Shown one piece after another: positions 1 to 22,388 of a stretch of DNA of 22,813 nt; position 1 is the first letter of the stretch; each line of letters starts with the position of its first letter. The notes beneath the pieces were generated by a model. The model saw only the letters and a program-made list of their open reading frames with translations. It had not been told where the DNA came from and did not search any database. The stretch comes from a virus (lineage: Duplodnaviria; Heunggongvirae; Uroviricota; Caudoviricetes), in IMG/VR virus record IMGVR_UViG_3300029517_000085, one strand, 5' to 3'. The position numbers and the translations under genes are program-made.

Positions 1-1313
1 CGGCCATTGTGGGGCTGGTTATCAAGCCTTTCCCGGAACCTGTCGTACTGTTAATTGCCGTTGCTGCCTCCATGGTGGTGGTCGGTAACTTATCCGACGG
101 TGCGTTTAAGACCACCGCCGTATTAAGCGGTTACTCTTCAGGTACTACCTGGCTGGTGTTCTCGGCGTTTACCTTAAGCGCCGCATTTGTGACCACCGGT
201 TTAGGTAAACGTATTGCCTATCTGCTGATTGGTAAAATCGGTAACACCACGCTGGGTCTGGGTTACGTTACGGTATTCCTCGATCTGGTACTGGCTCCGG
301 CAACACCGTCTAACACCGCGCGTGCGGGCGGCATTGTGTTACCGATCATCAACAGCGTGGCGGTGGCTTTGGGGTCCGAACCGGAAAAAAGTCCGCGTCG
401 TGTCGGACATTACCTGATGATGTCCATTTACATGGTCACCAAAACCACCAGCTATATGTTCTTTACCGCAATGGCGGGGAACATTCTGGCGCTGAAAATG
501 ATCAACGACATTCTGCACCTGCAAATTAGCTGGGGTGGATGGGCACTGGCCGCCGGATTGCCGGGCATCATTATGCTGCTGGTCACCCCACTGGTGATTT
601 ATACCATGTATCCGCCAGAAATTAAGAAGGTGGATAATAAAACCATCGCTAAAGCGGGCCTTGCCGAACTGGGACCGATGAAAATCCGCGAAAAAATGCT
701 GCTCGGTGTCTTTGTGCTGGCGCTACTGGGCTGGATTTTCAGTAAGTCTCTGGGGGTTGATGAATCCACTGTGGCAATCGTTGTTATGGCGACCATGCTG
801 CTGCTGGGTATCGTTACCTGGGAAGACGTGGTTAAAAATAAAGGCGGCTGGAATACCTTAATCTGGTACGGCGGTATTATCGGATTAAGCTCCTTATTAT
901 CGAAAGTTAAATTCTTCGAATGGTTAGCTGAAGTCTTTAAAAATAACCTGGCATTTGATGGTCACGGTAACGTTGCTTTCTTCGTTATTATTTTCCTCAG
1001 CATTATCGTGCGTTATTTCTTCGCTTCCGGTAGTGCCTATATCGTTGCTATGTTACCGGTATTTGCCATGCTGGCGAACGTCTCCGGCGCACCGTTAATG
1101 TTAACCGCGCTGGCACTGTTGTTCTCCAACTCCTATGGCGGCATGGTTACTCACTATGGCGGCGCGGCAGGTCCGGTCATCTTTGGCGTGGGTTATAACG
1201 ATATTAAATCCTGGTGGTTGGTCGGTGCGGTACTGACGATATTAACCTTCCTGGTGCATATCACCCTCGGCGTGTGGTGGTGGAATATGCTGATCGGCTG
1301 GAACATGCTGTAA
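1..1313 (+). CDS. ybhI: Putative DASS-family (divalent anion:Na+ symporter) inner-membrane transporter YbhI, 5' partial; the true start lies upstream of the window
   Basis: Open frame from the window edge to the stop at 1311-1313. Translation is highly hydrophobic with many predicted TM segments. Identity and synteny (ybhI-ybhJ-ybhC-attB) are from recall of E. coli K-12. Confidence 0.8.
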   Translation, partial: AIVGLVIKPFPEPVVLLIAVAASMVVVGNLSDGAFKTTAVLSGYSSGTTWLVFSAFTLSAAFVTTGLGKRIAYLLIGKIGNTTLGLGYVTVFLDLVLAPATPSNTARAGGIVLPIINSVAVALGSEPEKSPRRVGHYLMMSIYMVTKTTSYMFFTAMAGNILALKMINDILHLQISWGGWALAAGLPGIIMLLVTPLVIYTMYPPEIKKVDNKTIAKAGLAELGPMKIREKMLLGVFVLALLGWIFSKSLGVDESTVAIVVMATMLLLGIVTWEDVVKNKGGWNTLIWYGGIIGLSSLLSKVKFFEWLAEVFKNNLAFDGHGNVAFFVIIFLSIIVRYFFASGSAYIVAMLPVFAMLANVSGAPLMLTALALLFSNSYGGMVTHYGGAAGPVIFGVGYNDIKSWWLVGAVLTILTFLVHITLGVWWWNMLIGWNML

Positions 1314-1495
1314 ATATACTCGTCATACTTCAAGTTGCATGTGCTGCGTTTGCGTTCGCTCACCCCAGTCACTTACTTATGTAAGCTCCTGGGGATTCAC
1401 TCGCTTGTCGCCTTCCTGCAACTCGAATTATTTAGAGTATATCCATTTATTATCTTTCTGCGCACTTCACGGTGCGCAGATATCTGGAGCATTTG

Positions 1496-3757
1496 ATGAT
1501 CAAGTTATCTGAAAAAGGCGTGTTTCTCGCCAGTAATAACGAAATAATTGCCGAAGAACATTTCACCGGCGAAATTAAAAAAGAAGAAGCCAAAAAAGGC
1601 ACTATTGCCTGGTCTATTCTCTCTTCTCATAATACGTCCGGAAATATGGATAAACTTAAAATTAAGTTTGATTCATTAGCCTCTCACGATATTACCTTTG
1701 TTGGTATTGTACAGACCGCTAAAGCGTCCGGAATGGAACGTTTCCCGCTGCCGTATGTGCTGACCAACTGCCATAACTCACTCTGCGCCGTCGGCGGCAC
1801 CATTAACGGTGATGACCATGTTTTTGGTTTATCGGCAGCTCAGCGTTATGGCGGTATTTTTGTGCCTCCGCATATTGCGGTCATCCATCAATATATGCGT
1901 GAGATGATGGCAGGCGGCGGCAAAATGATCCTCGGGTCAGACAGCCACACCCGTTACGGTGCATTAGGGACAATGGCAGTCGGTGAGGGCGGCGGTGAGT
2001 TGGTAAAACAGCTGCTTAATGACACCTGGGATATCGACTATCCGGGAGTTGTTGCGGTGCATCTGACCGGAAAACCAGCGCCGTATGTGGGGCCGCAGGA
2101 TGTGGCGCTGGCTATCATCGGTGCCGTGTTCAAAAACGGCTACGTCAAAAACAAAGTGATGGAATTCGTAGGTCCCGGTGTTGCTGCGCTCTCTACCGAT
2201 TTCCGTAACAGCGTTGACGTTATGACCACTGAAACGACCTGTTTAAGTTCTGTCTGGCAAACCGATGAAGAAGTCCATAACTGGCTGGCGCTGCACGGTC
2301 GCGGCCAGGATTACTGCCAGCTTAACCCTCAACCGATGGCGTACTACGATGGCTGCATCAGCGTTGATTTAAGCGCCATCAAACCAATGATTGCGCTGCC
2401 GTTCCACCCGAGCAACGTGTATAAAATCGACACACTGAACCAGAACCTGACCGACATTCTGCGTGAGATTGAAATTGAGTCCGAACGCGTGGCGCACGGT
2501 AAAGCCAAACTCTCGCTGCTGGATAAAGTGGAAAATGGTCGCCTGAAAGTGCAGCAGGGGATTATCGCGGGCTGTTCTGGCGGTAACTACGAAAACGTCA
2601 TCGCGGCGGCGAATGCACTGCGCGGTCAATCCTGTGGCAATGACACCTTCTCGCTGGCAGTTTACCCGTCATCACAGCCGGTGTTTATGGATCTCGCCAA
2701 AAAAGGTGTGGTAGCAGATTTGATTGGCGCAGGCGCAATCATCAGAACCGCGTTCTGCGGCCCATGCTTTGGCGCGGGCGATACGCCAATCAACAACGGT
2801 TTGAGTATTCGCCACACCACGCGTAACTTCCCGAACCGCGAAGGCTCTAAGCCAGCTAATGGGCAGATGTCAGCGGTGGCGTTGATGGACGCTCGTTCTA
2901 TCGCTGCGACTGCGGCAAACGGTGGCTATTTAACCTCTGCCAGCGAACTTGATTGCTGGGACAACGTGCCGGAGTACGCCTTCGATGTAACGCCGTATAA
3001 AAACCGTGTTTATCAGGGCTTTGTGAAAGGGGCAACTCAGCAACCGCTGATTTACGGACCGAACATTAAAGACTGGCCGGAATTGGGTGCGCTGACTGAC
3101 AATATCGTCCTGAAAGTGTGCTCGAAGATCCTCGACGAAGTGACCACCACCGACGAACTGATTCCTTCCGGTGAAACCTCTTCTTATCGTTCAAATCCGA
3201 TTGGTCTGGCGGAGTTTACCCTGTCACGCCGCGATCCCGGTTATGTTGGCAGAAGTAAAGCGACTGCTGAGCTGGAAAATCAGCGTCTGGCGGGGAATGT
3301 CAGCGAGCTGACAGAGGTGTTTGCGCGCATTAAGCAGATTGCTGGTCAGGAGCATATTGATCCGCTGCAAACTGAAATTGGCAGCATGGTATATGCGGTG
3401 AAACCAGGCGATGGTTCTGCGCGTGAACAGGCGGCGAGCTGCCAGCGTGTGATTGGCGGTCTGGCGAATATTGCCGAAGAGTACGCGACTAAACGCTACC
3501 GTTCTAACGTCATCAACTGGGGGATGTTACCGCTGCAGATGGCGGAAGTGCCAACCTTTGAAGTGGGGGATTACATTTACATCCCTGGCATTAAAGCGGC
3601 GCTGGATAATCCGGGTACGACGTTTAAAGGTTATGTGATCCATGAAGATGCGCCGGTAACGGAAATTACGCTCTATATGGAAAGTCTGACTGCTGAAGAG
3701 CGCGAGATTATCAAGGCGGGTAGTTTGATTAACTTCAATAAAAACCGTCAGATGTAA
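1496..3757 (+). CDS. ybhJ: Aconitase-family putative hydratase YbhJ (753 aa from the ATG at 1496; the longest ORF starts at 1472)
   Basis: 761-aa ORF with an internal ATG at 1496 preceded by GGAG about 8 nt upstream. Aconitase-like Cys/Gly-rich segments (e.g. [14 protein letters not shown]). Start choice is based on the RBS and recalled K-12 length. Confidence 0.8.
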
Positions 3758-3769
3758 AAAGCGCCATGT

Positions 3770-3978
<209 letters not shown>

Positions 3979-3990
3979 AGTTAATTGCTC

Positions 3991-5274
3991 TTACTTCTTC
4001 GCCTCTGCAACCACTTTACTACCCACGCCGCGGTTATTGTATTCCCACATGCGGTTGTAGTTAGTGTCATTCAGATTGCGCTGTATTTCGTCGTTATCAT
4101 CTACGCTGCCGGTATTACCCGCAAACGGACGATTAGAGATCACCGCATCGGCCCACGGTTTAGCCGTGTTAAAACCTTCGTTGATGGCGCTATCACGGAT
4201 CACCACCTGACCGTTGGTATTGGCATCAACATCCAGCGAGCGGCCCAGTTGCGCCACACCATCACCGAAAGCATTGAAACGGCTGTTTACGGCGAGGAAA
4301 CCGTAGTAAATGTTGGACAGCGTAGCCGGTGCAAACACATACGCTTCTTGCTGAGTACGTGAGTTCACCACGCGGAATTCGGTGTTATCGAACACCACTG
4401 CGCCGCGACCAGAAACGATATCCACATCCCCTTCAATGTAGCTGTTGGTCACCAGCGTACGCGGCTGACGATTCGTTTCCAGACGGTTCTGCACACCGCT
4501 GTTGGTGACAAAGAAGGTGTTCTGACGACCGAGAATGTTAACGTTGTTAATCTGTACCTGGTCACCATCAGTACGCAGTGCCACCGCCGGATGGTTACCT
4601 GCATCTACGCTATCGCCCAGCGTGTTTTCGATGGTCAGATTTTGCAGTTGCAGGCCATTGTTTTGTGACCAGAAGACCGCAGAGCAGAGAACACCGATAC
4701 TGTCGCTGCGTTTGCTCTGGCAGCTATCGTACATATACCACGCTGGTTTACCTGGCATATATTTGCCGCGCGGGTTGACGTCGTGACGCCAGTCGGCAGG
4801 GCTCATGCCACCATCAAGGGAAAGCCCAATCTTCACATCAATCGGTTTTTCACCTGTACCGTACAGAGTAATTCCACCCGGAGCGGCAGGGACATATACC
4901 GTTCCCTGATACTCACCAGGCATCACGGCAATATACTGGCGCTTGTTGGTACGCTTGATAATTGCCGCATCTACCGCCGCCTGAATCGTGGTATGCGTTA
5001 CACCTTGAGTGCCCGCCGGGCCGACAACAAAGTCAGGTTGCGCAGGCAGGGTAATCGGGGAAGGATTCCACGCTGCAGCACCTGGTGTCAGGGATGCAAA
5101 ATAGTGTTGAGCATCGAAATTCTGCGCTTCTTTTGCCGACAGAATCGGGCGAGAAGAGGTACCAGGCGCGGTTTGATCAGAAGGACGTTGATCGGGCGGG
5201 GTTGAGCTACAGGCGGTCAGCGTCACGCCAAAAGCCAATGCCAGCGCCAGACGGGAAACTGAAAATGTGTTCAC
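3991..5274 (-). CDS. ybhC: Outer-membrane lipoprotein YbhC, pectinesterase-family fold
   Basis: 427-aa ORF. N-terminal signal peptide with lipobox LTAC-S (MNTFSVSRLALALAFGVTLTACSS). Position immediately chromosomal-side of the lambda attB core, as recalled for K-12. Confidence 0.85.
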   Translation of the reverse strand: MNTFSVSRLALALAFGVTLTACSSTPPDQRPSDQTAPGTSSRPILSAKEAQNFDAQHYFASLTPGAAAWNPSPITLPAQPDFVVGPAGTQGVTHTTIQAAVDAAIIKRTNKRQYIAVMPGEYQGTVYVPAAPGGITLYGTGEKPIDVKIGLSLDGGMSPADWRHDVNPRGKYMPGKPAWYMYDSCQSKRSDSIGVLCSAVFWSQNNGLQLQNLTIENTLGDSVDAGNHPAVALRTDGDQVQINNVNILGRQNTFFVTNSGVQNRLETNRQPRTLVTNSYIEGDVDIVSGRGAVVFDNTEFRVVNSRTQQEAYVFAPATLSNIYYGFLAVNSRFNAFGDGVAQLGRSLDVDANTNGQVVIRDSAINEGFNTAKPWADAVISNRPFAGNTGSVDDNDEIQRNLNDTNYNRMWEYNNRGVGSKVVAEAKK

Positions 5275-5310
5275 AGGTTGCTCCGGGCTATGAAATAGAA
5301 AAATGAATCC

Positions 5311-5412
5311 GTTGAAGCCTGCTTTTTTATACTAAGTTGGCATTATAAAAAAGCATTGCTTATCAATTTGTTGCAACGAACAGGTCACTATCAGTCAAAA
5401 TAAAATCATTAT
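5311..5412. other. attL: Prophage attL: bacterial arm + lambda core GCTTTTTTATACTAA (5321-5335) + P' arm with Int arm-type sites
   Basis: Sequence GAAGCCTGCTTTTTTATACTAAGTTGGCATTATAAAAAAGCATTGCTTATCAATTTGTTGCAACGAACAGGTCACTATCAGTCAAAATAAAATCATTATTTG matches the recalled lambda attP P' arm joined to attB. It lies directly next to int. Confidence 0.85.
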
Positions 5413-6479
5413 TTGATTTCAATTTTGTCCCACTCCCTGCCTCTGTCATCACGATACTGTGATGCCATGGTGTCCGACTTATGCCCGAGAAGATGTTGAG
5501 CAAACTTATCGCTTATCTGCTTCTCATAGAGTCTTGCAGACAAACTGCGCAACTCGTGAAAGGTAGGCGGATCCCCTTCGAAGGAAAGACCTGATGCTTT
5601 TCGTGCGCGCATAAAATACCTTGATACTGTGCCGGATGAAAGCGGTTCGCGACGAGTAGATGCAATTATGGTTTCTCCGCCAAGAATCTCTTTGCATTTA
5701 TCAAGTGTTTCCTTCATTGATATTCCGAGAGCATCAACATGCAATACTGTTGGGATGGCAATTTTTACGCCTGTTTTGCTTTGCTCGACATAAAGATATC
5801 CATCTACGATATCAGACCACTTCATTTCGCATAAATCACCAACTCGTTGCCCGGTAACAACAGCCAGTTCCATTGCAAGTCTGAGCCAACATGGTGATGA
5901 TTCTGCTGCTTGATAAATTTTCAGGTATTCGTCAGCCGTAAGTCTTGATCTCCTTACCTCTGATTTTGCTGCGCGAGTGGCAGCGACAGGGTTTGTTGTT
6001 ATATGGCCTTCAGCTATTGCCTCTCGGAATGCATCGCTCAGTGTTGATCTGATTAACTTGGCTGACGCCGCCTTGCCCTCGTCTATGTATCCATTGAGCA
6101 TTGCCGCAATTTCTTTTGTGGTGATGTCTTCAAGTGGAGCATCAGGCAGACCCCTCCTTATTGCTTTAATTTTGCTCATGTAATTTATGAGTGTCTTCTG
6201 CTTGATTCCTCTGCTGGCCAGGATTTTTTCGTAGCGATCAAGCCATGAATGTAACGTAACGGAATTATCACTGTTGATTCTCGCTGTCAGAGGCTTGTGT
6301 TTGTGTCCTGAAAATAACTCAATGTTGGCCTGTATAGCTTCAGTGATTGCGATTCGCCTGTCTCTGCCTAATCCAAACTCTTTACCCGTCCTTGGGTCCC
6401 TGTAGCAGTAATATCCATTGTTTCTTATATAAAGGTTAGGGGGTAAATCCCGGCGCTCATGACTTCGCCTTCTTCCCAT
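5409..6479 (-). CDS. int: Lambda-type tyrosine integrase Int (356 aa)
   Basis: Translation MGRRRSHERRDLPPNLYIRNNGYYCYRDPRTGKEFGLGRD... matches recalled lambda Int over its full length. Adjacent to attL. Confidence 0.95.
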   Translation of the reverse strand: MGRRRSHERRDLPPNLYIRNNGYYCYRDPRTGKEFGLGRDRRIAITEAIQANIELFSGHKHKPLTARINSDNSVTLHSWLDRYEKILASRGIKQKTLINYMSKIKAIRRGLPDAPLEDITTKEIAAMLNGYIDEGKAASAKLIRSTLSDAFREAIAEGHITTNPVAATRAAKSEVRRSRLTADEYLKIYQAAESSPCWLRLAMELAVVTGQRVGDLCEMKWSDIVDGYLYVEQSKTGVKIAIPTVLHVDALGISMKETLDKCKEILGGETIIASTRREPLSSGTVSRYFMRARKASGLSFEGDPPTFHELRSLSARLYEKQISDKFAQHLLGHKSDTMASQYRDDRGREWDKIEIK

Positions 6480-9817: not shown

Positions 9818-9996
9818 TCAGTGGTTGTCATACCTGGTCTCTCTCATCTGCTTCTGCTTTCGCCACCATCATTTCCAGCTTTTGTGAAAGGGATGCGGCT
9901 AACGTATGAAATTCTTCGTCTGTTTCTACTGGTATTGGCACAAACCTGACTCCAATTTGAGCGAGGCTATGTGCCATCTCGATACACGTTCNNNNN

Positions 9997-10185
9997 NNNN
10001 NNNNNNNNNNNNNNNNNNNNNNNNNNNNNNNNCCGTTTATTATTTATCTCCTCAGCCAGCCGCTGTGCTTTCAGGGGATTTCTGATAACAGAAAGGCCGG
10101 GAAATACCCAGCCTCGCTTTGTAACGGAGTAGACGAAAGTGATCGCACCTACCCGGATATTATCGTGAGGATGCTTCATCGCCAT
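9997..10185 (-). CDS. Lambda orf60a-like small protein; 3' end falls inside the masked N run (9992-10032)
   Basis: N-terminal 51 aa [51 protein letters not shown] match recalled lambda orf60a. The rest is unreadable because of Ns. The end coordinate is inferred from the lambda length. Confidence 0.5.
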
Positions 10186-13385: not shown

Positions 13386-13727
13386 TCAATCGTAATAAGC
13401 TGGAATTGATTTTCCGCGTTGCTTCTGGCGGCCTGAGCAAGTCACACCCATTTCACTGCGTGGCTTGCGGTAGTAAATACGGTTCTGTTTACGCTCGACT
13501 TCTTCTGCCTTCTGGCAGCGAAGGCTTCCGAGTGATATTGCTTTTTCAGAAAGGCTTAAACGTTTTCTCGGGGCTTCCTGAACAGGTTCCTCACTGTCTG
13601 TGCCGAAGATCGAATCGATGATGTTGCATATAGCATCACGCTCGATAGCCAGCTTTCTGCGCCGCTCATGACGGCGAGTTTTGGCATTTCCTGCAAATGT
13701 TGATTTCCCGTACACGATTACCGTCAT
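13386..13727 (-). CDS. N: N antiterminator, P22-type arginine-rich motif (113 aa from the ATG at 13727)
   Basis: MTVIVYGKSTFAGNAKTRRHERRRKLAIERD... contains the recalled P22 N ARM GNAKTRRHERRRKLAIER. C-terminal GVTCSGRQKQRGKSIP resembles lambda N. Start chosen at Met29 of the 141-aa ORF (GAGGA SD) because the longer ORF would run into nutL. Confidence 0.88.
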   Translation of the reverse strand: MTVIVYGKSTFAGNAKTRRHERRRKLAIERDAICNIIDSIFGTDSEEPVQEAPRKRLSLSEKAISLGSLRCQKAEEVERKQNRIYYRKPRSEMGVTCSGRQKQRGKSIPAYYD

Positions 13728-13846
13728 GATGTTTTCCTCATGTGAAATGGCTTTGGGGGTGATGTGCCAGATGCTGATCTTCTGGTTGCTGTCGTTGCAG
13801 CTGCAATTCACATCACCGCCAAATCCATCTCGTTTGGTATCTGTTT

Positions 13847-13880: not shown

Positions 13881-14143
13881 CTGCCAATCTGTTCCGTTTG
13901 GCTGCCAGCATCCTGCTGACGGCGATAATAATGAACTAATAGTTCGATATTATCAAGAACTGCAAGTACGAGATTTTGCAACTCTTTAATTTTATTAGAT
14001 AAGTTTTTGATATGTAATGAAATTTATTTTTGCAAAGATTGAAGATTGGTCTGTAGGGGAGAAAGGACTGTATTGCTGGCGTGTTAGTTCGTGGGTTAGC
14101 ACATATGCGGATGTTAAATAGGGGAGGCGAACGTGAGGTAAAG
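13881..14143 (-). promoter_or_regulatory. Probable pL/oL early-left promoter-operator region (exact operators not resolved)
   Basis: Non-coding AT-rich interval between the immunity-operon terminator and nutL. Contains motifs (GAACTGCAAGTACGAG, TTGCAA-containing repeats) resembling those in the cI-cro intergenic region. Positional inference from lambdoid architecture. Confidence 0.4.
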
Positions 14144-14170
14144 AAAACCCGGCGCAGAGGCCGGGTTTTT
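14144..14170 (-). terminator. Intrinsic terminator ending the cI-proximal operon (t_imm analogue); palindromic, potentially bidirectional
   Basis: AAAACCCGGC-GCAGAG-GCCGGGTTTTT: GC-rich 6-bp stem extended by A/U pairs, followed by a U-tract on the minus strand (UUUUCUUUACC) immediately after the stop of the 258-aa gene. Confidence 0.7.
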
Positions 14171-14947
14171 CTAGGCTACCAGAGAGTCAATCCAAGAGTC
14201 TCTGGTATGGAATGGCAACACTCGTGCGGTATCATTAAATAGTAGTGATAGTTGCTGTAGCTCAGGTGTTAACCCATCGCTGTCAACTATTACAAATCTA
14301 TTGTTTATGTCAGGAACGACCTGACTTAAGTCAACAATCTTCCCAACTGTTGAGTGGGCAGTATTCCATCCTTTACTGCTGGCAAGGCTTACCGTAAACC
14401 CGCGTTTTGGTGGTATTAGTCGAGACTCATTCCTTAGCGTTAACGGAACAGTAATGTTATGCCCACTAATACCTTTCACTTTTTCCTTTAAGGCTAGTCG
14501 CTTCCCAAGCCCTGCTGATTTTAAGTAACTGATTACACATTTTTCGAACTTATCGTCTTTGACCTCAGCATACCAATCAGCAGTTTGGGCGGATGCAAGA
14601 ATCCCACCACGAATAACATTTGCAGTTACCTGTCCAACGGACGACTCATCTGCCCACGCAGATATCTCTCCAGAGTCATTTAATGAAATTCCTTGCGAAG
14701 CGAGTGATGACCTGATCAGATCAATTTTCTTTTTAGTCAGGTGGATGCCGCGTGATTCAATATTCATCAATGTATCGCAGTAGTCTGTAACCCTATACTG
14801 ACCACTCATCTCTTGAACGAATACGCTTATCTGCTCACAATCATCGTAGTATGTGAAGGGACTAATAACGCGCAGCAACGTGTCGCTCATTGGGTGGCAT
14901 TCAAACCCGAGCTTAGATATGACTGTTGAACACGTTACATTTCCCAT
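14171..14947 (-). CDS. Hypothetical protein (258 aa; alternative start at Met20, 14890), distal gene of the rex-position cassette
   Basis: ORF on the same strand as cI. Its ATG lies inside the last codons of the upstream gene (…TCATGGGAAATGTAA…), suggesting translational coupling. No TM segments or catalytic motifs recognised. AT-rich. Confidence 0.6.
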   Translation of the reverse strand: MGNVTCSTVISKLGFECHPMSDTLLRVISPFTYYDDCEQISVFVQEMSGQYRVTDYCDTLMNIESRGIHLTKKKIDLIRSSLASQGISLNDSGEISAWADESSVGQVTANVIRGGILASAQTADWYAEVKDDKFEKCVISYLKSAGLGKRLALKEKVKGISGHNITVPLTLRNESRLIPPKRGFTVSLASSKGWNTAHSTVGKIVDLSQVVPDINNRFVIVDSDGLTPELQQLSLLFNDTARVLPFHTRDSWIDSLVA

Positions 14948-15477
14948 GATAGCTGACCTGATTTATCTTGATTCGGTAAAGGTGGGCTGCCTTCATATAT
15001 GATATTAAGCGCCTCGCAAAAATAATTCCAGTAGCCAAAAAAATCATCTGGCTTGATGTTCGTTTCAAGCTTGAGTGCAATTTCTTCCCCAGCTGATTCG
15101 AAGTACATGTGATAGTGAGGACCTCGAGCCACCTCAACAAAATCTGGATGGTGCACTATAGATTTATTACGGTGTGACTTGTTATGCGCAGGGTACGGGT
15201 CAAGCGCGTAAATGCGCCTGTCATGAAGAAACATCACAAATGAAAGCTTCACTATATCCACCCCTTCAACGATAGGAGAACGCCAGTGAAGCATAAATCT
15301 TATGCCTGTGATTGGGTTGCCAATTTCATCAAAAGCTTTGAGATCCAATTTAAACCAGATTGGGGTTCGTCCCTCACTTCCGGTCCACGAAACTCCGCTA
15401 AAAGTTACTTTTTTCAAGCGAGTAATAGCTTGGTCAACCTCTTTCTGGGTAGGCTTAAAGTCGCCTTTTTTAGCCAC
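14935..15477 (-). CDS. Hypothetical protein (180 aa, apparent GTG start), proximal gene of the rex-position cassette
   Basis: ORF starting 98 nt downstream of the cI stop, same strand, with a GGTGA SD-like element 9 nt upstream. His-rich segment HHPDFVEVARGPHYHMYFE. No family recognised. Confidence 0.55.
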   Translation of the reverse strand: MAKKGDFKPTQKEVDQAITRLKKVTFSGVSWTGSEGRTPIWFKLDLKAFDEIGNPITGIRFMLHWRSPIVEGVDIVKLSFVMFLHDRRIYALDPYPAHNKSHRNKSIVHHPDFVEVARGPHYHMYFESAGEEIALKLETNIKPDDFFGYWNYFCEALNIIYEGSPPLPNQDKSGQLSWEM

Positions 15478-15574
15478 TGATTCGTATCACCATGAAAGTT
15501 ATTGTTAATACCTATGCTTCTTGTCACCCAAACGTCTCTTCAGGCCATTGGTTACCAGCTATGTGACGATGAAG

Positions 15575-16282
15575 TCACGAACTTTTAATCCATTCCCTTG
15601 CCTCGATGTCATCTAGGTGGCGAGATTGCTTCAAAATACCAGCCACATACTCCACCTTTGCTACTTGATGATAAGGCAACGTTATTGGCCTGTGGTCTTG
15701 ATTGATGCTTGTAAATTGGTATTCTCCGTCTCTGTCATAGCCAAGAACCTTGATCATGTTGTGCCCTTCAATGGTTCTGACAAACACTTCATCACCTGGG
15801 AATACTTTGGTGTTAGGCTCAATGAGTACATATTCTCCTGATTTAATTCTGGGCCACATGCTGTCTCCTTTTACACGAAGACCAAAGGCATCTGGATCAT
15901 CGCTATAAATCTTGAGCCACCCATCGCGCTCTTCGGTCATCTCGATGGCACCATCAACACCAAGAATTGCCTCACCAACCACGCGCACTAACCCTTTTTT
16001 TAATTTGCCAACAATTGAAAAAGTATCTTCATCATTCGCTCCATTTAACGAAGTGCCGTGCTGAAGCCAAACAACATCAACGTTTAGAAATTTCGCAAGC
16101 GCATTCATTTTTTCCTGGCGTGGTAAAGACTCAGCATTAAACCATTTGCTAACGCCTTTGGACGAAAGAGAAAGGGCACGGGCTATGGCCATTCCCCTAC
16201 CATGTTCATCAAGACCAGCTTCTTTACAGGCTTGCGCTAGCCGCTGGGCGAATTCTTTGCGCACTTTTTCATTCTGAACCAT
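15575..16282 (-). CDS. cI: CI-type prophage repressor (235 aa): N-terminal HTH DNA-binding domain plus C-terminal LexA/S24-like autopeptidase domain
   Basis: HTH-like N-terminus (…GMAIARALSLSSKGVSKWFN…). C-terminal GDSMWPRIKSGEYVLIEP with a downstream Lys, typical of S24 Ser-Lys dyad repressors. Divergent from cro. Not lambda or 434 immunity by recall. Confidence 0.85.
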   Translation of the reverse strand: MVQNEKVRKEFAQRLAQACKEAGLDEHGRGMAIARALSLSSKGVSKWFNAESLPRQEKMNALAKFLNVDVVWLQHGTSLNGANDEDTFSIVGKLKKGLVRVVGEAILGVDGAIEMTEERDGWLKIYSDDPDAFGLRVKGDSMWPRIKSGEYVLIEPNTKVFPGDEVFVRTIEGHNMIKVLGYDRDGEYQFTSINQDHRPITLPYHQVAKVEYVAGILKQSRHLDDIEAREWIKSS

Positions 16283-16360
16283 GAGTACGATACTAAAGCA
16301 CTTGCAAAAACTTTCAGTTCAATCATAAAGCGTACTGAAAGTACGAAAAAGGGTATTCCT
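16283..16360. promoter_or_regulatory. oR/pR/pRM divergent promoter-operator region between cI and cro
   Basis: 78-bp intergenic region containing the inverted repeat CGTACTGAAAGTACG (16331-16345) and the related CTTTCAGT/ACTTGCAA motifs. The cI ATG has no SD, consistent with a leaderless pRM transcript as in lambda. Confidence 0.6.
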
Positions 16361-17923: not shown

Positions 17924-18408
17924 AAAACATCGCCGCACAGATGGTTAACTTTGACCGTGAGCAGATGCGTCGGATCGCCAACAACATGCCGGAACAGTAC
18001 GACGAAAAGCCGNNNNNNNNNNTACAGCAGGTAGCGCAGATCATCAACGGTGTGTTCAGCCAGTTACTGGCAACTTTCCCGGCGAGTCTGGCTAACCGTG
18101 ACCAGAACGAACTGAACGAAATCCGCCGCCAGTGGGTTCTGGCTTTCCGGGAAAACGGGATCACCACAATGGAACAGGTTAACGCAGGAATGCGCGTAGC
18201 CCGTCGGCAGAATCGACCATTTCTGCCATCACCCGGGCAGTTTGTTGCATGGTGCCGGGAAGAAGCATCCGTTATCGCCGGACTGCCAAACGTCAGCGAG
18301 CTGGTTGATATGGTTTACGAGTATTGCCGGAAGCGAGGCCTGTATCCGGATGCGGAGTCTTATCCGTGGAAATCAAACGCGCACTACTGGCTGGTTACCA
18401 ACCTGTAA
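17920..18408 (+). CDS. P: Replication protein P, C-terminally truncated (162 aa versus 233 aa recalled for lambda); a 10-nt N run at 18013-18022 masks a few codons
   Basis: MKNIAAQMVNFDREQMRRIANNMPEQYDEKP…SNAHYWLVTNL matches recalled lambda P up to about residue 162, then hits a stop at 18406-18408 where lambda continues (YQNMRANAL…). Confidence 0.8.
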   Translation: MKNIAAQMVNFDREQMRRIANNMPEQYDEKPXXXXQQVAQIINGVFSQLLATFPASLANRDQNELNEIRRQWVLAFRENGITTMEQVNAGMRVARRQNRPFLPSPGQFVAWCREEASVIAGLPNVSELVDMVYEYCRKRGLYPDAESYPWKSNAHYWLVTNL

Positions 18409-18514
18409 AGGGCATGCCAAGCAAGTCGATGCTGCATATGCAAAAGAATGCGCGCTGGAAGGTATGGCGAGAACACAGGTTATCTGGCTGAAAGAGGGGG
18501 TTATTAAGGCGTGA
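18409..18514 (+). pseudogene. 3' remnant of a ybcO-like (DLP12 nin-region) gene fused downstream of truncated P
   Basis: Frame ending at 18514 encodes …[29 protein letters not shown], matching the recalled C-terminus of K-12 YbcO, with no corresponding N-terminal part. Stop overlaps the rusA GTG start (GTGA). Confidence 0.55.
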
Positions 18515-18873
18515 ATACCTACAGCATCACATTACCCTGGCCTCCGAGCAATAATCGCTATTACCGCCATAATCGCGGGCGCACGCACGTCAGCGCAGAG
18601 GGGCAGGCATACCGCGATAACGTCGCCCGAATCATTAAAAACGCAATGCTGGATATCGGCCTGACTATGCCTGTGAAAATCCGCATTGAGTGCCACATGC
18701 CGGATCGCCGTCGCCGTGACCTGGATAATCTGCAAAAAGCCGCTTTTGACGCACTCACTAAAGCAGGTTTCTGGCTGGATGATGCTCAGGTCGTTGATTA
18801 CCGCGTTGTGAAGATGCCTGTTACCAAAGGTGGGAGGCTGGAACTGACCATCACCGAAATGGGGAATGAATGA
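18511..18873 (+). CDS. rusA: RusA Holliday-junction resolvase (120 aa), GTG start
   Basis: [51 protein letters not shown]… matches recalled E. coli DLP12 RusA almost residue for residue. Confidence 0.93.
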
Positions 18874-19010
18874 TGTTTGAGTTTAATATGGCAGAACTTC
18901 TTCGCCACCGCTGGGGGCGTCTGCGCTTATATCGTTTCCCCGGTTCTGTTTTGACCGATTACCGAATACTGAAGAATTACGCCAAAACACTGACAGGAGC
19001 AGGAGTATGA
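18870..19010 (+). CDS. ylcG: YlcG-like small protein (46 aa)
   Basis: Hand-translated [46 protein letters not shown] with stop at 19008-19010. Overlaps the rusA stop (ATGA-type). Matches recalled DLP12 ylcG. Confidence 0.7.
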
Positions 19011-19095
19011 AGTCAGAGATAACAATCAACTAATACTGTTTTGTTGATTTTTGCTTGTAATTGGCGTTCTGGTCTGAGTTTTGTGGAGTAAGTTG

Positions 19096-19473
19096 ATGCG
19101 TGATATTCAGATGGTTCTTGAGCGTTGGGGAGCGTGGGCGGCTAATAATCATGAAGATGTGACCTGGTCGTCCATTGCCGCCGGTTTTAAGGGATTAATT
19201 CCTTCAAAAGTAAAATCTCGCCCACAATGTTGTGACGATGACGCGATGATCATTTGCGGGTGCATGGCCCGTCTGAAAAAGAACAACAGCGATTTGCATG
19301 ATTTATTGGTGGACTATTATGTCGGCGGCATGACTTTTATGGCGCTTGCACGTAAGCATGGGCGATCTGATTGTTGGGTTGGCAGGATGCTTCAGAAAGC
19401 TGAGGGCGTAGTGGAGGGTATGCTGATGGTGTTGGATCTCCGATTGGAGATGGATGCTGATTGTTCGAAATAA
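19096..19473 (+). CDS. Q: Late-gene antiterminator Q (phage 82/DLP12 QuuD-type), ~125 aa from the ATG at 19096
   Basis: [75 protein letters not shown]… matches recalled QuuD. GGAG SD 8 nt upstream of the ATG; the ORF track's TTG start at 19081 is less likely. Confidence 0.88.
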
Positions 19474-19572
19474 TTAAAGGAAAAGTTGCTGTCTGATTGT
19501 CATTAGTCTAACATTTTAAATGTTGGAATCGCAACGTAGTTATTATCATATAACAGCTTGTTTCCTGATTTA
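19474..19572 (+). promoter_or_regulatory. Candidate late promoter pR' with Q-utilisation region (exact -35/-10 not resolved)
   Basis: Positional inference: interval immediately downstream of Q and upstream of a strong intrinsic terminator. Contains TTGGAA…TATCAT-like hexamers with non-ideal spacing. Confidence 0.35.
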
Positions 19573-19600
19573 GCCAGCCTCCCCAAAGGCTGGTTTTTTT
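19573..19600 (+). terminator. Intrinsic terminator (tR'-like on the plus strand; may also terminate convergent blc-like transcription)
   Basis: CCAGCCT-CCCCAA-AGGCTGG followed by TTTTTTT (7 T) on the plus strand. Confidence 0.75.
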
Positions 19601-19628
19601 CTAATAAGTATTATTTCGGGTAGGGATT

Positions 19629-20153
19629 TTATTGTTTAACCCATAATAATTCATTGACATTGAATCCCAACTTTTGAGCGGTTCGCACATAGTCTGCTTT
19701 TACTTTATCTGGAATAGTTGGGGTCCTTGCCAGAATCCATAGGTATTCTCTGTTCGGACCACTGACAAGAGCATACTTATACTCATCATCCAGTTTGATT
19801 ACATTATAGCCACCATAGAAGGGGCCAAAAAACGAAACCTTCAATGCTGCAGTTTTAGTATCTCCAGTAAAGTATGCTTTACCTTCGCTCTCGCTCCATT
19901 TATTTTTCGTTGGATCGTATCCACGGTTAAGTACACGAATCCCTCCGTCGTTCCGTTTTCCATAAGTAGCGCTGACCTGTTCCAGACCACGTTCGAACCG
20001 GTTCTCGAGGCGAGCTATTTCATACCATTTTCCGAGGTAGCGGTTGGCGTCAAAATTTGTAATCGGCTGCACACCTTTAGGTGGTGTCGGGGCCTTACAT
20101 GCTATAAGAGTGAAAGAGAGTGCAATGCCAGTCAACACAGGCCATAACTTCAT
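19629..20153 (-). CDS. Bacterial lipocalin (Blc-like) outer-membrane lipoprotein, 174 aa; prophage cargo
   Basis: Signal peptide with lipobox (LIAC-K). Lipocalin SCR1 motif YLGKWYEIARLENRFE plus …KVSFFGPFYGGYNVI…YLWILARTP resemble recalled E. coli Blc. Opposite strand to the flanking phage late genes. Confidence 0.8.
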   Translation of the reverse strand: MKLWPVLTGIALSFTLIACKAPTPPKGVQPITNFDANRYLGKWYEIARLENRFERGLEQVSATYGKRNDGGIRVLNRGYDPTKNKWSESEGKAYFTGDTKTAALKVSFFGPFYGGYNVIKLDDEYKYALVSGPNREYLWILARTPTIPDKVKADYVRTAQKLGFNVNELLWVKQ

Positions 20154-20345
20154 AATAAATCCTGTACCTTTGATAGTTGAGAGTAAGTATGAAAGATAGA
20201 TGATTACGACCGATCACTTAAAGAACTTTCATACTATATTAGGAATAGTCCATAACAGAAAAATTGTCAGTGATGACGCCAGAAAGGCAATTTATTCCGT
20301 GCACTACACAGTTTATGTGTTAATGAATTAGTCAAGGGGGAGAAT

Positions 20346-21305
20346 ATGATAAAAAAACCTGTGATTGGAATCAGCGGTTGTTTGGCCGGTTCTGCTGTTC
20401 GTTTTGATGGTGGTCACAAAAGAGCTGACTTTTTAATGGACAAATTAGTGGAATGGGTAACATTCAGACCAGTATGTCCGGAAATGGCTATAGGGCTGCC
20501 AGTTCCGCGTCCTGCTCTACGTCTTGTGCGCTCGACGCAAGGAAATATACGGATGTGTTTCAGCCACGACCAGAATGAGGATGTGACAGAGAGAATGACA
20601 GAGTTTAGTCGTTCTTATATGGACAAATTAAAGGATGTATCGGGGTTTGTGGTTTGTGCTAAATCTCCCAGCTGTGGCATGGAGCGCGTGCGTGTCTATG
20701 ATGAAAATGGTAATCGAGGTCGTAAAGATGGAGTGGGACTATTTACGAGCACTTTGATGGAAAAGTTTTCCTGGCTACCGGTTGAAGAGGATGGGCGATT
20801 ACATGATCCAGTGCTTCGTGAGAATTTTATTGAAAGAGTTTTTGCTTTGCATGAGCTCAATCACCTTTACAAGGAGAAATTATCAAGAAGAGAGTTATTA
20901 GCTTTTCATAGTCGTTATAAGCTTCAGTTGTTGGCGCATAGCCAGGCAGGCTATAAAGATATGGGACCATTTGTGGCTGCAATACACGAGTGGGCGGACC
21001 TTGAATCATACTTTGAGGTGTATCGTGATAAGCTGATGGCGATTCTCAGAAAACCTGCATCACGTAAAAATCACACGAATGTGCTGATGCATATACAGGG
21101 GTATTTTAGTAACTACTTAAGTACACGCCAGCGTAAAGAGTTGAGCGAGGTTATACTTAACTATCGTTCTGGCACATTACCTCTTCTTGCGCCGTTGACT
21201 CTGCTGAAGCATTATCTGGGTGAGTATCCTAATGATTACTTGCTTACACAGAATTACTTCGATCCCTATCCGGACGAACTGGCTCTAAGACTGATGGTAA
21301 ATTAA
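20346..21305 (+). CDS. DUF523/DUF1722-like protein (TudS/YbgA-like, possible Fe-S enzyme), 319 aa; prophage cargo
   Basis: N-terminus KPVIGISGCLAGSAVRFDGGHK and conserved Cys (CPE, CAKSPSCG) resemble the recalled DUF523 (thiouracil desulfidase-like) signature. C-terminal half resembles YbgA-like DUF1722. Family call from motif memory only. Confidence 0.5.
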   Translation: MIKKPVIGISGCLAGSAVRFDGGHKRADFLMDKLVEWVTFRPVCPEMAIGLPVPRPALRLVRSTQGNIRMCFSHDQNEDVTERMTEFSRSYMDKLKDVSGFVVCAKSPSCGMERVRVYDENGNRGRKDGVGLFTSTLMEKFSWLPVEEDGRLHDPVLRENFIERVFALHELNHLYKEKLSRRELLAFHSRYKLQLLAHSQAGYKDMGPFVAAIHEWADLESYFEVYRDKLMAILRKPASRKNHTNVLMHIQGYFSNYLSTRQRKELSEVILNYRSGTLPLLAPLTLLKHYLGEYPNDYLLTQNYFDPYPDELALRLMVN

Positions 21306-21647
21306 TTGTATGCGATATCATCCAAAAGGATGAGTTCCTGCATGCAGGATATTTACAATCGTAAAAACTACACTATGATACCCAGAGTGTCAGTTTGTAT
21401 AAAAACTCTGTTTACGCTGAAGAAACAATTGAGATGCAACTTAAAGTTGGTAAACATGCCAGTCAAAATATATAATATTATGATTCCACGCAGCTATATA
21501 TAATATAACGGATTGGTTTAATAATTTGTCTTTGTGAGTTAAATACATAATTTTATACTTGTGATGCAATGAAATTTTCCTTATTGTTGAACTGGCGAAT
21601 ATTGATTTTCCACCTATACTTACCTGGTGTAACCCCAATGATATCAG

Positions 21648-22388
21648 GTGGATAATATGCCATACATATGTTCTATCATTTTGGTGTTGAACTCGTTTGA
21701 TGTCCGAATTGGTAAAGAAGATATTTTGTTTAAAAAAGGAAGTGCTGTTCTCATTGATTACAATTTAAAAGATTTTTTTTCATCAAATATAGATCATGTA
21801 ATGATCGTAGATGTTGAAGAGAAAACAGTTAATGATTTCTTTAAAAGCAACACACTCTCACCTTTTTCTGTAAGAAGGTTTTATCCGGCATACTTGATGG
21901 TGGAATGTGAAGATTTTTCATTGTTAAAGAACTTGATTGCATGCTTGAATTGTGATGGCAGAACTGTGGATTTTGTTAGAAATCAAATATCACTTGCATG
22001 TCTTGCTATCTTATCTTCAGAGAAAATAGTGCAAAGTTTTTTATTTGGATGTCTTAATGGTTTAGGAAGTAAAGTTAAGGCTATTATTCACACGGATATA
22101 TCTGCAGCATGGAGACTTTGTGATATATCTTCAAGACTGTATCTGAGTGAAAGTCTGTTAAAAAGAAAATTAAAGCACGAAGGCTTATCATTTAGTAAGT
22201 TAATTCTTGAAGAGCGAATGGTGATGGCGGAAAGGTTATTAAGCTACAATTTATATTCTGTTGGAAAAGTTGCTGAGATATGCGGTTATGAAAACACGTC
22301 ATATTTTGTAAGTGTTTTCAGAAGGTATTTTGGTGTTCCTCCCCATCAATATTCATCAAGATTTTTTTTAGAAAAAGACATGATGTAA
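21648..22388 (+). CDS. AraC/XylS-family transcriptional regulator (246 aa), AppY/GadX-like; prophage cargo
   Basis: C-terminal dual HTH signature (…LLKRKLKHEGLSFSKLILEERMVMAERLLSYNLYSVGKVAEICGYENTSYFVSVFRRYFGVPPHQY). Very AT-rich gene and upstream region. Confidence 0.8.
   Translation: MDNMPYICSIILVLNSFDVRIGKEDILFKKGSAVLIDYNLKDFFSSNIDHVMIVDVEEKTVNDFFKSNTLSPFSVRRFYPAYLMVECEDFSLLKNLIACLNCDGRTVDFVRNQISLACLAILSSEKIVQSFLFGCLNGLGSKVKAIIHTDISAAWRLCDISSRLYLSESLLKRKLKHEGLSFSKLILEERMVMAERLLSYNLYSVGKVAEICGYENTSYFVSVFRRYFGVPPHQYSSRFFLEKDMM

Follow-up and report, generated by a model that had tools for sequence, protein, structure and literature searches.

Our analysis concerns two adjacent genes, here called A and B, in a 22,813-nt stretch of DNA from a virus of the Caudoviricetes (IMG/VR record IMGVR_UViG_3300029517_000085), the whole of which we refer to as the window. 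The genes lie downstream of a cI-type repressor gene in a lambdoid prophage, and the original prediction, made from the letters alone, was that two unrecognized, co-oriented genes occupy here the slot of lambda rexA and rexB and form a novel prophage defense module. The coordinates and sizes of both genes (180 and 258 aa) were confirmed, as was the slot itself, with cI on one side and oL/pL and the N_peptide gene on the other. The features of the locus are:

13386-13811, minus strand: N-type antiterminator gene, the first pL gene, on the far side of the slot (Pfam N_peptide, 1e-25)
13928-13969, minus strand: oL/pL, with operator-like sites at 13933-13945 and 13957-13969 flanking or overlapping a TTGATA-17-CATTAT promoter
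14144-14170, minus strand: intrinsic terminator predicted by folding (the tIMM equivalent), which would end the cI-A-B transcript; apparent left junction of the cargo slot
14171-14947, minus strand: gene B, 258 aa, ATG start, two domains, the N-terminal DUF1828 and the C-terminal of predicted PD-(D/E)xK fold (DUF1829-like)
14935-15477, minus strand: gene A, 180 aa, GTG start, soluble, beta-rich, a remote relative of DUF6978 and PDC-M24A
15524-15551, minus strand: conserved 28-nt block CCAATGGCCTGAAGAGACGTTTGGGTGA in the cI-A spacer, 100% identical in phage ev207; apparent right boundary of the cargo
15575-16282, minus strand: cI-type repressor gene, the first gene of the presumed lysogenic operon (Pfam Peptidase_S24, 3.5e-16; HTH_3, 1.2e-5)
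16276-16288, 16308-16320 and 16332-16344, no strand: oR, three 13-bp palindromic operator-like sites between cI and cro

The gene order, from cI through A, B, the terminator and oL/pL to N, is the same arrangement as in lambda, where rexAB occupies the interval between cI and oL/pL; a repressor gene identical to the one in the window is annotated in RefSeq as an S24 family peptidase. The start of B is embedded in the end of A, as had been noticed from the sequence: the two genes overlap by 13 nt, with the ATG of B (14947-14945) inside the end of A, within ...TCATGGGAAATGTAA, and A and B are translationally coupled. The strong intrinsic terminator that had been proposed behind them also held up, being a GC-rich hairpin that lies 1 nt past the B stop codon, is followed by UUUUCUUU and has a folding energy of -21.4 kcal/mol (z = -4.2), equalled in none of 200 shuffles by RNA folding. 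A consensus terminator scanner missed this hairpin at 14144-14170, probably because A-U pairs lengthen the stem into the T-run. The consensus scan detected no terminator in the 97-nt spacer between cI and A, which makes read-through from the cI promoters the simplest reading; A and B would then be transcribed together with cI from pRM/pRE, and both proteins would hence be present in the lysogen. The operator-like pattern GWACTNNNAGTWC occurs six times in the window against 1.57 expected, a count that none of 100 shuffles reached, with three copies in the gap between cI and cro (16276, 16308, 16332) and two to the left at 13933 and 13957, and a pL-like promoter on the minus strand (13956..13928) lies beside or overlaps both of the left sites. 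Our first guess at this pattern, with a 4-nt spacer, occurred at chance level and was dropped; the version with a 3-nt spacer is the significant one.

Both A and B are real genes. Purifying selection is evident against the Pantoea homologs, with pN of 0.135 and pS of 0.78 for A and pN of 0.109 and pS of 0.78 for B, the synonymous sites (pS 0.78) being saturated in this comparison. Neither protein is predicted to contain a transmembrane helix, the maximum Kyte-Doolittle mean over 19 residues being 1.22 for A and 0.79 for B, in agreement with what had been read from the sequence. The supposed AT-richness of the cassette relative to its flanks did not survive: its GC content (0.43-0.44) is the same as in cI, cro and the N region (0.42-0.46), and the argument from base composition for a foreign origin is therefore rejected. 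Higher GC is found elsewhere, in the recombination genes (~0.51-0.54) and in the replication-region DNA from ~17.4 kb rightwards (~0.50-0.54). Low GC is a mark of the entire immunity region and not of the A-B cassette.

The argument from the slot proved stronger than originally put, given sharp conserved junctions and a cargo that varies among sibling prophages. Homology to sibling E. coli prophages extends on the N/pL side up to 14167, just past the B stop codon and with the terminator included, and on the cI side from 15526 or 15549, at 92-97% identity in the shared flanks. The terminator region at 14119-14167 is kept in prophages with different cargo and in phage ev207, which retains both the terminator and the 28-nt block although its A, B and flanking genes differ. 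Judged from these alignments, 14119-14167 and 15524-15551 look like the recombination junctions of the slot, and a role as a functional RNA element is also conceivable for the 28-nt block. In another E. coli that has the same cI allele (locus L014, NZ_CP148357, 1243-2753), the slot holds a HipA_2 kinase and a DUF3037 protein (Pfam 2.7e-73 and 4e-19; PADLOC PDC-M66A/B), and in NZ_LR778141 (locus L016, 1369-1902) it holds a DUF2335 protein, a family described in Pfam as a predicted membrane protein. The slot of EPEC E2348/69 (locus L015, 1171-1941) carries a 256-aa orphan, with no match in Pfam or PADLOC, which is itself a candidate. Providencia and Izhakiella prophages have an additional 113-aa DUF3024 gene (PADLOC PDC-S43, 5.7e-37) lying between the repressor gene and A, at 4052-4393 in locus L007, 4053-4394 in L008 and 4044-4385 in L011. 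The cargo recorded so far comprises the HipA/DUF3037 pair, DUF3024/PDC-S43, DUF2335 and several orphans, and the 28-nt block together with the terminator offers a simple rule for finding more of it in lambdoid prophages.

A and B are inherited and exchanged as a single unit with sharp junctions. Every one of the 13 loci with a B homolog has a match to the A profile immediately upstream of B, the two genes abutting or overlapping; these loci represent two E. coli allelic types, Pantoea, two Providencia species, Yersinia, Xenorhabdus, Izhakiella, Thorsellia, Pseudomonas phage phPA-G, Burkholderia phage phi644-2 (gp48/gp47) and one 518-nt fragment. Distant A homologs from metagenome and genome contigs, with 20-28% identity to the protein of the window, are likewise followed within a few nt by a DUF1828 protein of 245-258 aa (six of six), so that the survey of pair conservation foreseen at the outset found A and B adjacent in 19/19 loci, usually just after a prophage repressor. 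In the Enterobacterales loci the pair stands just after cro/cI-type repressor genes that are mutually unrelated in sequence, and the window-type cassette itself lies behind a different repressor in another strain (locus L017). The window-type allele is present in 61 of 5,426 complete E. coli genomes. A sister allele, known from phage ev207 and E. coli Nissle 1917 and located in the same slot, shares 39% identity with the window protein in A and 51% in B and occurs in 239 complete E. coli genomes, among them the probiotic Nissle 1917 and the type strain ATCC 11775; both allelic types together account for ~5% of complete E. coli genomes. The sister cassette is 100% identical in Nissle 1917 (NZ_CP022686, 4789150-4790456) and ATCC 11775 (NZ_CP033092, 2870382-2871688). 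As an aside on annotation, the A homolog of Pseudomonas phage VB_PaD_phPA-G (PP083311; locus L003, 2920-3504; profile E 2.9e-29) is unannotated: its reading frame runs into the beginning of the DUF1828 gene that is annotated there, where the deposited annotation has a 670-nt gap.

Neither protein had been recognized in the original prediction, and in this respect our searches changed the picture: B passes Pfam DUF1828, A is a remote relative of DUF6978, and both fall into PHROG families labelled function unknown (2017 for A, 1960 for B). For A and B of the window, the Pfam scan returned DUF6978 and DUF1828 alone. The DUF6978 match of A (21.1 bits, residues 100-159) falls below the gathering cutoff of 29.6 bits, which makes A a remote relative and not a member by the Pfam criterion. 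Its own family is small, with 42 representatives found at E <= 1e-3 in a set of 1.84 billion proteins, and 8 of 32 members match DUF6978 (best 2.8e-9) while 10 of 32 match PADLOC PDC-M24A (best 2.5e-9); the link of A to both is thus transitive. The conserved residues of A are R88, D93, H102, N104, H121 and H123, a cluster which, read from the alignment and with low confidence, may be typical of a metal- or His-dependent hydrolase. A was not identified as a kinase in the Pfam scan, the NCBIfam scan returned nothing for A or B, and neither family profile matched any PDB chain by sequence at E <= 10. The confident structure model of A found no relative in the PDB and no BFVD match at E <= 1e-3, and this combination of a confident model with no known structural match makes A a good target for structure determination.

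B is better placed. Its match to DUF1828 (40.9 bits, residues 30-112) is above the gathering cutoff of 22 bits, and its AlphaFold2 model (pLDDT 82.6) consists of two halves. The C-terminal half is assigned, on the model, to the restriction-endonuclease (PD-(D/E)xK) fold and the N-terminal DUF1828 half to a chaperone-like fold, because the secondary structure from residue 132 onwards runs alpha-beta-beta-beta-alpha-beta and relatives match DUF1829: the B homolog gp47 of phi644-2 passes Pfam DUF1829 over residues 163-240, and the B-type protein of the sister allele gives an HHpred probability of 98.8% for DUF1829 (clan PDDEXK) over residues 155-241, in addition to DUF1828. A broad alignment of the family shows three invariant residues in the N-terminal half (P30, D36, D55) and three in the C-terminal half (G159, S161, D206); the (D/E)xK motif is not conserved in the family and is absent from beta-3 (residues were assigned to strands from the DSSP string of the model), and H163, K181 and E135 vary. 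B is, as modelled, a protein with a nuclease fold and without the canonical catalytic signature. The earlier statement that no obvious nuclease was present accordingly fails at the level of the fold and stands at the level of the canonical catalytic residues. A proposed homology between the C-terminal domain of B and the DUF3037-DUF1829 protein found in the slot was discarded (hhalign probability <1%).

Two published computational predictions bear on the function of the pair. The PADLOC PDC set comprises 145 computational candidates chosen because members were found inside BREX, DISARM or type I RM loci ("guilt-by-embedding"), among them PDC-M24, which corresponds to cassette CAS_00098, consists of two families and has 153 recorded occurrences (Payne et al. 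2024 preprint). Running PADLOC on both proteins, a check envisaged from the start, did yield matches to PDC-M24, though weak ones, with raw E values, before any PADLOC system threshold, of 1.5e-3 for A and 6e-7 for B (residues 5-112 alone); no other PADLOC family matched A or B at E <= 1. The ev207 B protein matches PDC-M24B at 7e-10 over nearly its full length, and the best B-type intermediates reach 1e-10. The gene order of PDC-M24 is also that of the window, a small DUF6978-type protein followed by a DUF1828 protein of ~250 aa, whereas the window pair belongs to a divergent, prophage-borne enterobacterial branch. Independently, DefensePredictor labels the ev207-type proteins WP_001062368.1 and WP_000968518.1 each a "Predicted novel defense gene" and places the two in a single transcription unit; the A-type protein has log-odds of 4.9-5.4 and the B-type of 5.6-6.3 (DeWeirdt, Mahoney and Laub, Science 2026, PMC13092281). 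The ev207/Nissle-type allele shares with the window the slot, gene order and architecture, DUF1828 and DUF1829 included, while differing at the level of sequence identity given above; the representative of the DefensePredictor A-type cluster, WP_001074607.1, is the window-type protein of locus L017. The claim of novelty is accordingly tempered: the pair represents a divergent branch, carried by prophages, of a candidate family that is already in Pfam, PHROGs and PADLOC and already predicted to be defensive.

Taken together, the slot, the embedding of relatives in defense loci and the machine-learning prediction lead us to favor, at a probability of roughly 0.6, the reading that A and B form an anti-phage defense module, expressed in the lysogen and carried as cargo of the repressor operon of a lambdoid prophage. 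The original proposal of a defense function is thereby brought into agreement with two independent published predictions, and like them it is still a prediction. Several considerations weigh against it. Co-transcription with cI is deduced from the absence of a terminator from the spacer; the matches of A and B to PDC-M24 are weak, and that of B is confined to its N-terminal part; and a recognized catalytic motif was found in neither protein, so that the effector and sensor roles discussed below derive entirely from patterns of conservation. Brenes and Laub reportedly described, in 2025, prophage defenses that include HipAD. Our search of the literature (DUF1828, DUF6978, PDC-M24 and the accessions) returned no experimental test of the pair or its homologs, although that 2025 work may have tested the slot. 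The ev207-type accessions are absent from the 94 units tested with DefensePredictor (Tables S6-S8, PMC13092281), among which the validation rate was 45% (PMC13092281).

Comparison with known systems shows that the pair is not a RexAB homolog and matches no characterized system. With lambda RexA/RexB it shares the slot downstream of cI on the same strand, the terminator before oL/pL, the number of genes and the presumed expression in the lysogen, whereas the sequences are unrelated by the PADLOC and Pfam scans and the sizes and folds differ. RexB is an ion channel and a polytopic membrane protein, in contrast to A and B, both of which are soluble. DS-6, or HipAD, a HipA-like kinase with a DUF3037-DUF1829 protein, is a validated defense system; it is thought to be toxin-antitoxin-like, and the DUF1829 domain of DS-6B has been read as DNA-binding and antitoxin-like, not catalytic. 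A pair likened to it by architecture occupies the identical slot in the E. coli of locus L014, whose cI allele is that of the window. DS-6 is, like the window pair, a two-gene operon, and its second protein has a C-terminal DUF1829-type domain, to be compared with the DUF1829-like fold predicted for B; the first gene of DS-6, however, encodes a kinase, while A is DUF6978-like. The PD-(D/E)xK effector nucleases Can2 and NucC of defense systems and the type II restriction enzymes NgoMIV and PspGI differ from B in their catalytic D...(D/E)xK residues, which are not conserved in the B family, and B is also without a CARF or cyclic-nucleotide-sensing domain.

Within the defense reading, the division of labor between the two proteins can be argued in either direction. 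Our tentative preference, which stays short of even odds, is for A as the catalytic effector and B as a sensor or scaffold, because the invariant residues of A are of a catalytic type, the nuclease fold of B has lost the canonical active site and the DS-6B DUF1829 domain has been read as DNA-binding. A and B would work as a complex; under this arrangement the chaperone-like DUF1828 domain of B would hold a partner protein, and its nuclease-fold domain, in which the canonical D...(D/E)xK residues are lost, would more likely bind nucleic acid than cut it. When a second phage infects, A, which bears the Arg/Asp/His/Asn/His/His cluster, would be set free or activated and may block phage replication or kill the cell (abortive infection). 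The bolder version, in which A founds a new enzyme fold and is the effector of a mechanistically new defense, gated by B as a degenerate restriction-endonuclease-fold sensor of nucleic acid or a phage protein, seems to us unlikely. With the roles reversed, B would be the effector, a non-canonical nuclease in the manner of Can2 or NucC, and A a sensor or activator whose His cluster binds a metal or ligand; this is doubtful, and nearly as likely as A being the effector. It has to contend with an acidic/lysine signature that is not conserved, H163, K181 and E135 being variable and beta-3 having no (D/E)xK, and with the DNA-binding, antitoxin-like interpretation of the related domain in DS-6B.

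Functions other than defense would also fit parts of the evidence. The two-gene, translationally coupled operon under repressor control could be a toxin-antitoxin or addiction pair that stabilizes the prophage, as the toxin-antitoxin-like character ascribed to DS-6/HipAD, a system of the neighboring slot, might suggest, or it could modulate the lysis-lysogeny switch in the way that lambda RexA is reported to do at pRM; the nuclease-fold domain of B could bind DNA. Yet A and B both exceed the typical size of an antitoxin, their distant relatives first came to notice inside BREX, DISARM or type I RM loci that are not in prophages, and the cassette is found with repressors unrelated to one another, which speaks against a regulatory role tied to a particular repressor; we consider such a function improbable. 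Less probable still is some other lysogenic-conversion or selfish "moron" role that has nothing to do with phages, for instance in stress or host interaction. The unrelated orphans in the slot of sibling prophages are compatible with it, but the module is tied to the early/immunity regions of temperate phages across the Proteobacteria and is flagged independently by two defense predictors. If the favored reading is correct and the pair does defend its host, a mechanistically opaque system would be added to the best-studied cargo slot in phage biology, and it could affect how sensitive strains used in therapy and in research are to phages, an effect that is possible since the alleles reside in 61 and 239 E. 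coli genomes, Nissle 1917 and the type strain among them.

The remainder of the window shows the setting of the prophage. The left end (9-6479) carries host genes of the Na/sulfate symporter family, the aconitase family and pectinesterase, followed by a lambda-type integrase (5409-6479, minus strand); we take the host genes to be ybhI, ybhJ and ybhC, and integration probably to have taken place at the lambda attachment site, on its ybhC side. Runs of N occur at 9992-10032 and 18013-18022, the second of which breaks a P-like replication gene, and sibling genomes have ~2.1 kb of extra sequence around the 18013-18022 region, so the window is masked or gapped at this point. The cargo of the nin region (18511-22388) is unusual, and the same block is found in hundreds of E. 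coli genomes:

18511-18873: RusA
19629-20153, minus strand: lipocalin
20346-21305: 2-thiouracil desulfurase/DUF1722 YbgA-like protein
21648-22388: AraC-type regulator

A truncation of the prophage after rusA was considered and rejected, as sibling genomes show the lipocalin, YbgA-like and AraC-type genes to be nin-region cargo of the prophage.
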